In this document: one piece after another, positions 40,566-43,327 of the stretch
Layout of the letters: each line of letters begins with the position of its first letter
Position numbering within the stretch: the stretch's first letter is position 1
From: a virus
Taxonomy: Duplodnaviria; Heunggongvirae; Uroviricota; Caudoviricetes
Virus record (IMG/VR): IMGVR_UViG_3300012979_000001
Location: 35,375 to 99,374 of that record
Direction: 5' to 3' (one strand)
DNA: 64,000 nt
Notes under the pieces: generated by a model
Told to the model about the DNA's origin: nothing
Database searches by the model: none
Seen by the model: the letters and a program-made list of their open reading frames with translations, nothing else
Program-made: the position numbers and the translations under genes

Positions 40566-41069
40566 ATGGACAAAAACATTGTAGATTTTTCTGGATTTGT
40601 TGCAGGCTGGATGAGTATGCACGTTTGGGACTATCGCACCCAAGAAATTAGAGCAACAAGAATAAGCTACATACAAGATTTTTTTGATGATTTACTTATG
40701 ATGTGTCAATATTTATTGTCTACAATTACTGGCATTTATGAAATAAATATCGACCAAGAAGGATTTGACTCTGCAATTAGATGCTACAAATATCAATTAA
40801 AACCAGATGCTCAAATTACAGTTGAGTTAAGAATTCCCGTATTTGAAGATGAAGACTGGAATATAGAAAAAGAATTAATTGATAATCATTTAATTTATCA
40901 TAATGTATCTCTTAAAAGTTTTGTTGAAAACATAATTAACCTAATAGAAAAATATAAACAAGAATATAATGAAGGTTTTGTTCTTACTCCTTCAAATAGA
41001 TTAAATGAAAAATTATTAAAAAAGGTAAAGAGTACATATATGTACCTTGTAAGGGAGGGAAAAATATGA
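40566..41069 (+). CDS. hypothetical protein (167 aa)
   Basis: start reassigned to ATG with RBS GAAAGGAG; promoter 40504-40532. Confidence 0.45.
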   Translation: MDKNIVDFSGFVAGWMSMHVWDYRTQEIRATRISYIQDFFDDLLMMCQYLLSTITGIYEINIDQEGFDSAIRCYKYQLKPDAQITVELRIPVFEDEDWNIEKELIDNHLIYHNVSLKSFVENIINLIEKYKQEYNEGFVLTPSNRLNEKLLKKVKSTYMYLVREGKI

Positions 41070-43327
41070 GAAAGTTAGTAATATTAAGAGGTTCAATGGG
41101 AGCAGGGAAGTCAACTTGGATTCAAAACAATAACCTAGACCTTTACACATTAAGTTCAGACAGTATGAGATTATTGTTAAAAGCTCCAAGAATGGGAATA
41201 GACGGGAAAGACTGTATCTTCCAAAAAGCAGATGGTGCAGCTTGGGATATGATGTTTTATTTCCTAGAAGAACGTATGAAAGGTGGAGAATTTACAATAA
41301 TTGATGCTTGTCATAGTAAAAGCTCTGAATTCTCACGATACAAATCTTTGGCAGAACAATATAGATATAGATTGTATTGTGTAGATTTTGGTGATGTTCC
41401 AATGGAGATTGCAAAACAAAGAAATGCACAAAGACCAGACTATAAACAAGTTCCAGAAGAAGCAATAGAAAAAGTATATTCAAGATTAGCAACACAAGGA
41501 AAAACAAGTGGATATACTGTTGTAAAACCAGAAGAGTTTTTTGATAAGGTTTTAATAAACGAACCATTTGATTGGAATGAATATGAAAATATACATATTT
41601 TTGGCGACATTCACGGATGTTATGAGCCATTAAAACAATACTTTACAGAAAACCCATATTCAGAAAAAGATGGATATATCTTTGTTGGAGATTATTTTGA
41701 TAGAGGAATTCAAAATGTAGAAGTATTTGCCTTTATTAGTACAATGATGGAAAAGAAAAATGCGTTATTTTTAACAGGAAATCACGAACAAACATTAAGA
41801 GATTATGCATTTGGAATGACAGTAAAATCAAGAGAATTTTTAGAAAAAACAGCAATACAATTAACAGAAGCTGGAGTAGAAAATACAGACCTAAGACAAT
41901 TCTATAGAAAATTAGGTGTTGCTGCATACATTACATTTAGAGGAATGGACTTTATAATTTCTCACGGAGGAATTCCATATCTTCCAAAAAAATCAATAGA
42001 CTTTTATGCAGCAGATTCTTTCATTAGAGGCGTTGGAAATTATCAAGATAATATTGATGAAATATTTGACAATTGGGCAAGAAAAGAAAATGAAACAAGA
42101 ACGAATCCAATATATCAAGTTCACGGACATAGAAATCTTTTACAACTTCCTTTAATTGATAAAGAATATTCATACAACCTAGAAGGACAAATTGAATTTG
42201 GAGGAGAGCTAAGAGTATTAAAAATTGCTAATGACGGAAGTTTCCATCCAAGAGCTATTACAAATACAGTATTCAACAAAGACCTATTAATACAAAAAGA
42301 AAATTCTTCAACTGGATTTGTTAGTTCAAAAATAACTGGTGTAGGAATGTACATACAAGAATTAAGAAAATCAAAATTCATTCAAGAAAAGGTAATGGCA
42401 GACACAAATATATCTAGTTTTAATTTTACCAGAAATGCTTTTGATAAAGGAATTTGGGGAGGATTAACAACAAAGGCAAGAGGGTTATTTATTGATACAA
42501 AAAATGAAAAAATCCAAGCAAGAAGTTATGACAAATTCTTTAACAAAAATGAAAGAGAAGAAACAAGAATAAATTATTTGATGCAAAATCTTGATTATCC
42601 AGCTTATTATTATAAAAAGTACAATGGATATTTAGGAATCTTATCTATGAAGGATGGAGAATTATATTTCTGTTCTAAATCAACAGACTCTGGAGAATAT
42701 GCAGAAAACTTTAAATCAATTTTTTATGCAATTTATAATGAAGAACAAGTAGATGCTATAAAAGATAGATTTAATAAGGAAAATGTGTCTATGGTATTTG
42801 AAGTTATTGACCCAATTAACGACCCTCATATGATAAAGTCACCTAATAAAATGCTGATTTTACTAGATATAATTTATAATGAAATAGACTTCAAAAAGGT
42901 AAGATATGACCACCTTTTAGCATTCGGGAAAAGAAATAATATTGAAGTAAAAGAGCTTGCATATACAGTAAATAATCCACAAGAGTTCCTTGCATTAAAT
43001 AATGAAATTTCAGAAATGGATTATAAGTATCAAGGAGAGTATATTGAAGGTTTTGTTGTAGAAGATTCTAGTGGATTTATGTTTAAATATAAATTGTACT
43101 ATTACAACATTTGGAAAAAGTTAAGAGGAGTAACTTATGCCTACTTAAAAAATCCAACAGGAACAGGAAAGTTTACAAGTTCTTTAACAACTCCAATGGA
43201 AAATTACTATTTAGCTTTCTTAAAAGAAAAATATCCGAATGGAGCTCCAGAGGAAGAAAGAAATAAATTAAATATTATTGATTTAAGAGATGAATTTTTA
43301 CAAACAGAAAATGGAACCGAGGTGTAA
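41066..43327 (+). CDS. Pnkp-like trifunctional RNA/DNA end-healing enzyme (P-loop 5'-OH kinase, calcineurin-like phosphatase, C-terminal ligase-like adenylyltransferase domain)
   Basis: GSMGAGKST Walker A; GDIHG / GDYFDRG / GNHE phosphatase motifs; KYNGYLGI (motif-I-like Lys) in C-terminal third; architecture as in Clostridium thermocellum Pnkp. Confidence 0.55.
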   Translation: MRKLVILRGSMGAGKSTWIQNNNLDLYTLSSDSMRLLLKAPRMGIDGKDCIFQKADGAAWDMMFYFLEERMKGGEFTIIDACHSKSSEFSRYKSLAEQYRYRLYCVDFGDVPMEIAKQRNAQRPDYKQVPEEAIEKVYSRLATQGKTSGYTVVKPEEFFDKVLINEPFDWNEYENIHIFGDIHGCYEPLKQYFTENPYSEKDGYIFVGDYFDRGIQNVEVFAFISTMMEKKNALFLTGNHEQTLRDYAFGMTVKSREFLEKTAIQLTEAGVENTDLRQFYRKLGVAAYITFRGMDFIISHGGIPYLPKKSIDFYAADSFIRGVGNYQDNIDEIFDNWARKENETRTNPIYQVHGHRNLLQLPLIDKEYSYNLEGQIEFGGELRVLKIANDGSFHPRAITNTVFNKDLLIQKENSSTGFVSSKITGVGMYIQELRKSKFIQEKVMADTNISSFNFTRNAFDKGIWGGLTTKARGLFIDTKNEKIQARSYDKFFNKNEREETRINYLMQNLDYPAYYYKKYNGYLGILSMKDGELYFCSKSTDSGEYAENFKSIFYAIYNEEQVDAIKDRFNKENVSMVFEVIDPINDPHMIKSPNKMLILLDIIYNEIDFKKVRYDHLLAFGKRNNIEVKELAYTVNNPQEFLALNNEISEMDYKYQGEYIEGFVVEDSSGFMFKYKLYYYNIWKKLRGVTYAYLKNPTGTGKFTSSLTTPMENYYLAFLKEKYPNGAPEEERNKLNIIDLRDEFLQTENGTEV

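Follow-up and report, generated by a model that had tools for sequence, protein, structure and literature searches.

The 64-kb stretch of phage DNA analysed here, which we call the window, carries at 41066..43327 on the plus strand a gene for a predicted trifunctional RNA heal-and-seal enzyme of the PHROG 8238 family. The ORF encodes 753 aa from an ATG start, and its boundaries are exactly those given in an earlier, sequence-only reading of this DNA. GGGAGGG serves as the ribosome-binding site, the N-terminus reads MRKLVILRG as in relatives, and the ATG is translationally coupled to the preceding ORF, whose stop it overlaps as ATGA. This co-transcribed upstream ORF (40566..41069, plus strand; 167 aa, ATG with an AGGAG site) is also called as a gene in contig L004, where the sequence is identical, and lies at the same position with 53% identity in the related phage contig L005; it matched no family in Pfam, PHROG or NCBIfam. 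A perfect extended-consensus promoter of the sigma-70/sigma-A type (TTGACA-N14-TGT-TATAAT) was found at 40504..40532 on the plus strand and most likely initiates transcription of the operon to which the repair gene belongs. The window holds 21 such sites, compared with 0.22 expected by chance, and in every case the strand of the site agrees with the gene orientation. Replication genes adjoin the operon, and profile searches assigned no family to the flanking ORFs 43290-43622 and 43624-44034. Twenty tRNA genes with ORFs scattered among them form an array at 27596..37668 on the plus strand, which ends 3.4 kb upstream of the repair gene. Both ARAGORN and Rfam detected these tRNAs, in agreement with the large tRNA set noticed earlier near the gene, and Rfam returned nothing else over the window. 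The array tRNAs are candidate substrates of the repair enzyme or candidate replacements.

Three Pfam domains, each over its gathering score, were found in the 753-aa protein: an AAA_33 P-loop kinase (aa 4-138, E 3.6e-19), Metallophos (aa 176-359, E 3.4e-14) and RNA_lig_T4_1 (PF09511; aa 470-677, E 2.9e-36, 125.9 bits where the gathering score is 28.3). They bear out the earlier proposal that a kinase, a calcineurin-like phosphoesterase and a nucleotidyltransferase/ligase are combined in one polypeptide. The phrog_8238 profile matched the protein over its full length (aa 1-747 to positions 1-732 of 737, E 2.3e-207). The full-length AlphaFold2 model had a pLDDT of 93.5 and a pTM of 0.61, and the latter value leaves the relative arrangement of the modules undefined. 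Module 1 (aa 1-165; 41066..41560, plus strand) is a predicted Pnkp-type P-loop polynucleotide 5'-kinase with the key residues G9-x4-G14-K15-S16, D32, R35, N120 and R123, which supply the catalytic Lys/Ser, the Asp general base and the Arg residues of Pnkp kinases. Module 2 (aa 170-400; 41573..42265, plus strand) is a binuclear metallophosphoesterase of the Clostridium thermocellum Pnkp (CthPnkp) and lambda-phosphatase type, with the motifs GD181xH183G, GD209xxDR213G, GN239H240E, H300 and GH355R356. The catalytic set of the CthPnkp phosphatase (Asp187, His189, Asp233, Arg237, Asn263, His264, His323, His376 and Asp392; PMC3675462) is present in this module. The closest structures for the kinase and phosphatase were the biochemically characterised CthPnkp modules and T4 Pnk. 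When residue conservation was scored over 142 representatives with a mutual identity of about 35-55%, all mappable catalytic residues known from CthPnkp and Rnl1/Trl1 were conserved at 89-100%.

The third module is divided into a predicted Rnl1-family adenylyltransferase domain (3a; aa 436-677; 42371..43096, plus strand) and a helical C-domain homologous to that of the fungal Trl1 ligase (3b; aa 678-753; 43097..43324, plus strand). Module 3a contains motifs I (K518-Y-N-G), III (E579), IV (E661-G662) and V (K674-x-K676), each conserved at 99-100% among the 142 relatives, as well as R472, R486, K490, K538 and H588. The presence of these four motifs, together with the PF09511 match above the gathering score, places it in the Rnl1 family. 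In comparison with the published catalytic-residue lists of Rnl1/Trl1 ligases (PMC11404444; PMC12440814), K518 aligned to the CtTrl1 nucleophile K148 and would be the lysine that receives AMP, and E579 aligned to CtTrl1 E218. The best sequence match of the ligase module was Candida glabrata LIG (phmmer E 2e-17); alignment to CtTrl1-LIG gave an hhalign E of 2.9e-21, and comparison with Trl1-LIG folds gave TM scores of 0.73-0.79. Its nearest relatives were Trl1-LIG and then T4 Rnl1, both tRNA ligases. T4 Rnl1 was not recovered by phmmer at E<=10, the alignment to it stops at T4 residue 250, and the C-domains of T4 Rnl1 and the repair ligase are not homologous. As judged from sequence and fold, the ligase module is thus of the Rnl1/Trl1 type and not a Pnkp (Rnl4) ligase.

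These findings bear directly on the sequence-only reading, in which the protein as a whole was likened to CthPnkp and regarded as a possible Hen1-independent variant of it. If it were a genuine bacterial Pnkp, it would carry the Pnkp ligase-like domain and Hen1 would have been lost or be unneeded. The order of kinase, metallophosphoesterase and nucleotidyltransferase is indeed the same, the kinase and phosphatase are nearest to those of CthPnkp, and TIGR04075 was the top NCBIfam match. However, TIGR04075, a model of 851 positions, fell far short of its cut-off of 750 bits, with a score of 103, and covered only aa 4-303, and the ligase has a different fold, with the C-terminal Pnkp-type (Rnl4) domain absent. 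Membership in the bacterial Pnkp family is refuted at the level of both sequence and fold, and we consider it highly improbable. Whereas the Pnkp ligase of C. thermocellum is activated by Hen1, no Hen1-like methyltransferase was found by profile searches among the approximately 65 window ORFs of at least 115 aa, adjacent to the repair gene or elsewhere, as had been noticed before. Since an autonomous Rnl1/Trl1-type ligase needs no Hen1 partner, a Hen1-independent Pnkp is the wrong frame for this protein, which belongs instead to the already catalogued PHROG 8238.

Like the repair protein, fungal Trl1 is a single trifunctional polypeptide, and the two have a similar ligase domain and a homologous C-domain, while three residues of the repair protein align to a His-Arg-Arg triad of Trl1. 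In contrast, the LIG-KIN-CPD order of Trl1, its GTP-dependent kinase and its 2H cyclic phosphodiesterase are not found in the repair protein. The stand-alone Mucorales and Branchiostoma ligases likewise count among the closest known systems. The likeness raises the question of whether repair follows a yeast-type route, in which the phosphoesterase would stop at a 3'-OH,2'-phosphate end, the ligase would prefer or require the 2'-phosphate, and Tpt1/KptA would clear the junction. In addition to the Trl1-specific C-domain, H588, K684 and R687 aligned to His227, Arg334 and Arg337 of CtTrl1, the pocket triad that enforces 2'-phosphate specificity (PMC11404444; PMC12440814). These three positions are conserved at 98-100% in the 142 relatives and have no counterparts in T4 Rnl1, although a Lys stands in place of the first Arg while the His and the second Arg are retained. 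Two conserved arginines correctly foretold the 2'-phosphate requirement of the Mucorales ligase (PMC10946426), but plant Trl1 requires the 2'-phosphate without them (PMC12440814), so the triad arginines are an imperfect predictor. On the healing side, CthPnkp carrying the single substitution H189D leaves 2'-phosphate ends on which the yeast ligase can act (PMC1920235), and 16 of the 142 relatives have Gln at the position matching His189. The window protein, on the other hand, retains His183 and Arg213, whose counterparts CthPnkp needs for full phosphate removal (PMC3675462). Moreover, a search with E. coli KptA as probe gave no Tpt1/KptA hit within the 64-kb window, and none at the homologous loci, whether in a set of 84 or in one of 165 spanning 2.76 Mb; the phage genera in which Tpt1 is encoded (Erwinia, Dickeya, Klebsiella and C. 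difficile phiCD211-like phages) differ from those that carry the family.

Taken together, these data make the yeast-type route unlikely, and it is quite doubtful that the family represents the eukaryotic Trl1 ligase in prokaryotes and, like it, prefers 3' ends bearing a 2'-phosphate. If such a preference were real, phages and bacteria would have a yeast-like ligation giving 2'-phosphate junctions, and bacterial and phage Tpt1/KptA, for which no natural substrate is known, would gain one. The fungal tRNA splicing ligase would then also seem to have come from bacteria or phages.

The architecture seen in the window is found full-length in about 112 sequenced phages and, of the 949 clusters at E<=1e-30, in almost every one of the 150 representatives with the highest scores. 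That it is so widely kept argues for selection on the fusion. Homologs in GenBank include ORF008 of Staphylococcus phage Twort, gp147 of Brochothrix phage A9, and proteins of Alicyclobacillus phage KKP_3916, Lactobacillus phage 3-521 and the Bacillus phages Goe11, Goe12 and SPbetaL2-L8. In the best-listed phage records the homologs have the same full-length architecture and are 34-40% identical to the window protein. Their labels, assigned by similarity only, range over 'RNA ligase', 'polynucleotide kinase', 'tRNA ligase', 'phosphatase' and 'hypothetical protein', and one bacterial member is labelled 'metallophosphoesterase'. The window copy is one more member of this catalogued family, and its general function can be guessed from the existing annotation. 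It represents a divergent branch, with relatives of 63-83% identity coming from metagenomes only; megablast gave no match to a close sequenced phage, and the DNA polymerase encoded in the window shares only 49% identity with that of Clostridium innocuum phage Amboise. A full-text literature search, outside which lies the RNA repair survey of Burroughs & Aravind 2016 that may describe the architecture, found no biochemically characterised family member.

Gut Bacillota and their phages carry the family in abundance, and many homologs stand alone in ordinary bacterial chromosome contexts without conserved neighbours, so it is not specifically an anti-defence device. This distribution would fit a general function in the repair or processing of RNA (or RNA/DNA) ends that is not particularly tied to tRNA or host defence; the enzyme might, for example, mend toxin-cleaved mRNA or rRNA, or process the phage's own transcripts. 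The stand-alone chromosomal copies in many gut Bacillota have no defence or tRNA neighbours, and most viral loci lack a nearby tRNA array: among 60 that were inspected, 32 had no tRNA within 10 kb. CthPnkp-type kinases, in addition, are reported to act on both DNA and RNA ends. However, the nearest characterised ligases, Trl1 and T4 Rnl1, both seal tRNA breaks. In a clade of approximately 115-135-kb viral contigs, furthermore, an array of 7-8 tRNAs starts 73-130 nt past the stop codon of the homologous gene, and in the window the array is also near. We regard a purely general role as rather unlikely.

Our preferred interpretation, to which we assign a probability of about 0.7, is that the repair gene encodes a self-sufficient RNA heal-and-seal enzyme that likely reverses cuts made by host ribonucleases in tRNAs or other RNAs. 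A role in RNA repair, probably tRNA repair, had been suggested previously and is still the best reading of the gene. [quoted passage not shown] The N-terminal P-loop kinase would phosphorylate the 5'-OH end from an NTP, and the central binuclear metallophosphoesterase would open the 2',3'-cyclic phosphate on the opposite end and then remove it. The Rnl1/Trl1-type ligase, adenylylated on Lys518, would then pass AMP to the new 5'-phosphate and join the ends. In vitro, broken tRNA has been repaired by healing with CthPnkp combined with an Rnl1-type ligase (PMC1920235). The perfect host-type promoter, the adjoining replication genes and the nearby array of 20 tRNAs suggest that the enzyme is probably made early in infection. 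A growing number of tRNA-cleaving defences is being recognised, and phage tRNA arrays are regarded as counter-measures to them; a single heal-and-seal protein made early would add a second, complementary one.

The T4 pathway that counters PrrC relies on two proteins, Pnkp and Rnl1, where the window phage has one, and the T4 phosphatase is of the DxDxT/HAD type whereas that of the repair protein is a metalloenzyme. The baculovirus AcNPV ORF86 of Martins & Shuman 2004 is reportedly also a single viral polypeptide, in which a 3'-phosphatase and a P-loop polynucleotide kinase are joined to an Rnl1-family ligase. Its modules are said to be arranged in the order ligase-kinase-phosphatase with a phosphatase of the HAD type, in contrast to the metallophosphoesterase found here. 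The PHROG 8238 family combines healing modules of the Pnkp type with a sealing module of the Trl1 type, two systems that have been studied apart from each other. The protein is compact and predicted with high confidence, which makes it an easy experimental target, and it could find use as a one-enzyme reagent for RNA repair or ligation.

The sequence-only reading had also drawn several other window genes into an RNA repair kit. A separate ATP-dependent ligase gene does exist at 9455/9476-10879, but its product is an ATP-dependent DNA ligase with an OB domain (PF01068 and PF14743; phrog_114, E 6e-83) and lies 30 kb away in another gene cluster, and it was rejected as an RNA repair partner. The two further metallophosphoesterases and the HAD protein named with it are likewise real genes. 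Profile searches identified a metallophosphoesterase at 10872-11567, and a HAD-superfamily protein with a DMDGT motif is encoded at 39335-39835; the latter matched HAD_PNKP below threshold (23.8 bits where the gathering score is 27.6), and no relative of it was found in the PDB. A place of the extra phosphoesterases and the HAD protein in RNA repair is not supported, and a recurring neighbourhood with the repair gene was seen only for a small metallophosphoesterase of 165 aa at 39837..40334 on the plus strand, which resembles aq_1665/1XM7 and phrog_547. In an all-against-all BLAST of the flanking ORFs of 85 loci, no conserved neighbours of the family gene other than this one and generic ABC ATPases were found, and the small metallophosphoesterase recurred in 7 loci. 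It is syntenic in contig L005 (52% identity), and in the bacterial loci L053, L064, L071 and L077 its homolog (31-33% identity) lies directly downstream of the family gene. The small metallophosphoesterase is a possible accessory partner of the repair enzyme.

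The repair gene lies at 41066..43327 on the + strand, exactly where a sequence-only reading had placed it, and encodes a 753-aa protein in which three Pfam domains exceed the gathering score: AAA_33 at aa 4-138 (E 3.6e-19), Metallophos at aa 176-359 (E 3.4e-14) and RNA_lig_T4_1/PF09511 at aa 470-677 (E 2.9e-36). A GGGAGGG ribosome-binding site precedes the ATG; this start codon and the stop of the preceding ORF overlap in an ATGA. In AlphaFold2 models based on an input alignment of 83 sequences, pLDDT was 93.5 for the entire protein and 97.2 for the ligase module (aa 425-753), while the whole-protein pTM of 0.61 indicates well-defined individual modules whose placement relative to one another is not defined.

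Foldseek ranked the ligase domain of Trl1 (LIG) as the closest ligase family to this module (TM 0.73-0.79, E 1e-15 to 4e-18), followed by T4 Rnl1 (0.62), archaeal Rnl3 (0.55), and Rnl2 and Rnl5 (both about 0.4); no Pnkp ligase-domain structure appeared among the top 50 matches. When aa 400-753 were searched against PDB with phmmer, Trl1 ligase domains were the only matches (E 2e-17 to 5e-6), and T4 Rnl1 was not retrieved even at E<=10. The family profile aligned with residues 93-396 of the Chaetomium enzyme, CtTrl1-LIG, over 273 columns (E 2.9e-21), spanning the entire C-domain as far as the terminal IIKLRNDFLEY motif, whereas its 214-column alignment with T4 Rnl1 (E 9e-13) ended at the onset of the C-domains, at T4 residue 250. 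The NCBIfam equivalog of bacterial Pnkp, TIGR04075, matched aa 4-303 only and reached 103 bits where the cut-off is 750. From these ligase matches and the partial TIGR04075 match, the protein is therefore a mosaic of Pnkp-type healing modules and a Trl1-type sealing module. Membership of bacterial Pnkp was rejected on the same grounds, and the earlier description of the protein as a Pnkp and a 'Hen1-independent variant' was wrong. Hen1 partners the Pnkp-type ligase, and Rnl1/Trl1 ligases work alone (PMC3675462, PMC4411300, PMC11404444); the Trl1-type sealing module accounts for the missing Hen1, to which none of the ~65 window ORFs of at least 115 aa gave a match. Ligase-only phage relatives of the Trl1-like module also exist, namely BFVD A0A8S5TYL2 (314 aa, 33% identity, TM 0.89 to target) and phrog_21952 (E 4e-34), in parallel with the stand-alone Trl1-type ligases of Mucorales.

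Conservation of the catalytic residues was analysed in an alignment of the query and 141 representatives of 50%-identity clusters, each 35-55% identical to it. Kinase residues G14-K15-S16, D32, R35, N120 and R123 were present in at least 96% of the 142 sequences, with S16 at 90%, and D32 and R35 paired with Asp38 and Arg41 of Clostridium thermocellum Pnkp (CthPnkp). In the phosphatase, D181, D209, R213, N239, H240, H300 and H355 were invariant, corresponding to CthPnkp Asp187, Asp233, Arg237, Asn263, His264, His323 and His376; the H183 position (window 41612-41614), the counterpart of His189, was His in 126 and Gln in 16 of the 142. All eight of these CthPnkp residues are essential (PMC3675462). 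Since changing His189 to Asp shifts CthPnkp to a 2'-phosphate product, the presence of Gln raises the possibility that phosphatase chemistry differs among sub-clades. In the ligase, K518 (motif I KxNG), which pairs with the CtTrl1 nucleophile K148, was invariant or nearly so, as were R472, R486, K490, K538, E579, E661-G662 and K674-x-K676. All three catalytic centres are thus maintained across a very large family, which provides strong indirect evidence that all three predicted activities are in use. The domain identities and their conservation are observed directly; from there we infer, with a probability of about 0.7, an autonomous, early-expressed heal-and-seal enzyme with an anti-defence role, acting on tRNAs or other RNAs. 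It would phosphorylate 5'-OH ends, remove 2',3'-cyclic phosphates and reseal the RNA through a Lys518-AMP intermediate, so that cleavage by host ribonucleases would be undone.

The chemistry of the sealed end, a point that the sequence-only reading had not noticed, was considered further. In fungi, the Trl1 ligase needs, or at least has a strong preference for, a 2'-phosphate beside the 3'-OH; in CtTrl1 this property is enforced by His227, Arg334 and Arg337 (PMC11404444, PMC12440814). With native CtTrl1 numbering verified against the 6n0v chain, these residues paired with H588, K684 and R687 in HMMER and hhalign alignments alike, and the three were conserved in 142, 140 and 139 of the 142 sequences, respectively. 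T4 Rnl1, which seals 2'-OH ends, had no counterpart of the triad in the profile alignment, where PTN-R stood opposite NDPH and SLH opposite IWK before the alignment ended. The conserved triad raises the possibility of a yeast-like route, in which the ligase would use 2'-phosphate ends and the junction 2'-phosphate would be removed by Tpt1/KptA, the enzyme needed for that step. Such a route is plausible in principle, since the single H189D change makes CthPnkp yield 2'-phosphate ends joinable by yeast ligase (PMC1920235). However, the window protein retains His183 and Arg213, and the first of the two triad arginines is replaced by Lys (K684). Searches of the window, of the surroundings of 84 loci and of 2.76 Mb of sequence around 165 homologous loci revealed no Tpt1/KptA, and the phage genera that encode Tpt1 differ from those carrying the PHROG 8238 family. 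In addition, plant Trl1 shows that the triad arginines are not a universal predictor of the 2'-phosphate need (PMC12440814). We consider the yeast-like route improbable; the protein would be of greater interest if its putative 2'-phosphate pocket proved functional.

Over its full length, the protein belongs to PHROG 8238 'RNA ligase' (E 2.3e-207). By tblastn, full-length relatives occur in about 112 sequenced phages, with 34-40% identity among the best-listed records, including Staphylococcus Twort-like phages (Twort ORF008 is annotated 'RNA ligase'), Brochothrix A9 gp147, Bacillus Goe11/Goe12/SPbetaL2-L8 and Alicyclobacillus KKP_3916; BFVD added Lactobacillus phage 3-521. An exhaustive search at E<=1e-30 returned 949 clusters (50% identity), of which the 150 top-scoring ones were nearly all 700-770 aa long. 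A species-level genome scan identified 229 loci, mostly in gut Bacillota, with bacterial carriers such as Acetatifactor muris, Coprococcus aceti, Flintibacter muris, Flavonifractor, and uncultured Bacilli and Erysipelotrichaceae. Many bacterial copies lie in ordinary chromosomal settings, for example between RecG and LemA, and locus comparison found no conserved neighbours around many of them; NCBI labels one member plainly 'metallophosphoesterase'. The nearest relatives of the window copy are metagenomic, 63-83% identical and on contigs of up to 188-199 kb, and one ENA contig (L004) is identical to the window over 15 kb. A jumbo-phage survey states that calcineurin-like domains sometimes provide the phosphatase beside RNA ligases, and says no more on the point (PMC7824862). 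Full-text literature searches turned up no experimental study of any PHROG 8238 member. Set against characterised systems, the protein combines known modules in a new way; in database terms, it adds one more member to a large family that is catalogued but unstudied.

With regard to tRNAs as a substrate of the proposed heal-and-seal enzyme, the large tRNA set noticed earlier is real: ARAGORN and Rfam both detected 20 tRNA genes, every one of them on the + strand, within 27596-37668. Interspersed among them, also on the + strand, are genes for a PD-(D/E)XK endonuclease (28675-29058), an Hsp20 small heat-shock protein (30260-30658), an SPFH/Band-7 protein (31602-32417) and a Ros/MucR-type regulator (33586-34080). 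Of 60 viral loci, 28 have a tRNA within 10 kb of the family gene. One clade of ~115-135-kb IMG/VR contigs (loci L103-L107, L110, L111, L134, L137 and L152) carries an array of 7-8 tRNAs (Leu x3, Pro, Gln, Gly, Met and sometimes His) that starts 73-130 nt past the stop codon of the trifunctional homolog (gene about 10001-12205; tRNAs from about 12278).

The repair gene is translationally coupled to a 167-aa ORF (40566-41069, +), which is preceded by a perfect extended-consensus promoter, TTGACA-N14-TGT-TATAAT (40504-40532, +). It belongs to a family of near-perfect extended -10 promoters: across the whole window (G+C 28.8%), the pattern TTGACA-N14-TGN-TATAAT with at most 1 mismatch occurred 21 times against 0.22 expected, with further examples at 590-618(-), 4429-4457(-), 4612-4640(+), 5694-5722(+), 26223-26251(+), 38124-38152(+), 45829-45857(+) and 62720-62748(+). 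All 21 sites agree in strand with gene orientation and flip alongside it at about 4.5 kb. These strand-matched consensus promoters suggest that the repair operon is transcribed early by host polymerase. About half of the 21 carry a palindrome in the spacer (TTGACAAAnnnTTTGTCA), a candidate operator for a phage or host regulator. Directly before the operon promoter, a further perfect promoter (40349-40377, +) heads a ~110-nt unit (region 40349-40496, +) containing a 10-codon ORF, MRRPIFPLIW, with a GGGGA site (40397-40429, +) and a strong hairpin with a T-run (40444-40496, +). This unit, with a fold z-score of -2.1, could be a small RNA or leader.

Two genes upstream of the repair gene, one for an HAD protein and one for a small metallophosphoesterase resembling aq_1665 (phrog_547; 39837-40334, +), are both syntenic in a related phage contig, L005, where the latter lies at 6793-7344. 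In four bacterial loci (L053, L064, L071 and L077), a homolog of the metallophosphoesterase also follows the family gene directly, so it may be a partner of the repair enzyme. Present in two phage contigs and four bacterial genomes, it was the only neighbour seen to recur; its sole relative with a solved structure is the uncharacterised aq_1665. The ligase at 9455-10879 is ATP-dependent, matches phrog_114 (E 6e-83) and carries an OB domain; as a DNA ligase it was rejected as an RNA repair partner, and neither it nor the unassigned phosphoesterase beside it supports the RNA repair kit proposed by the sequence-only reading. The functional idea of that reading broadly holds, while its family assignment and part of its supporting cast do not.

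Downstream lies a replication module comprising a UvrD-like helicase, Gam, a sigma factor, DnaB, primase, a RecJ-like nuclease, a PolIII-alpha-type polymerase and an ExoV/Dda-like helicase. The UvrD-like helicase is split into overlapping ORFs (44035-45144 and 45122-45796, +; 369 and 224 aa); a single 589-aa ORF spans both pieces in L005, and the independent contig L004 has the identical split, which may be a real frameshift or split gene. The polymerase also occupies two overlapping ORFs (55754-57796, 680 aa, and 57744-59153, 469 aa with finger, HhH and OB domains; both +), and its nearest sequenced relative is in Clostridium innocuum phage Amboise (49% identity). Genes for a PAPS-reductase-domain protein (16201-16923, +), a radical-SAM protein (21038-21976, +) and a class-V aminotransferase/cysteine-desulfurase homolog (61545-62705, +; E 3e-70) together give a hint of a pathway for nucleic-acid modification, whether sulfur-dependent or of another kind. 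The window also encodes a ClpP-like protease (19670-20248) and a DUF5662 protein.
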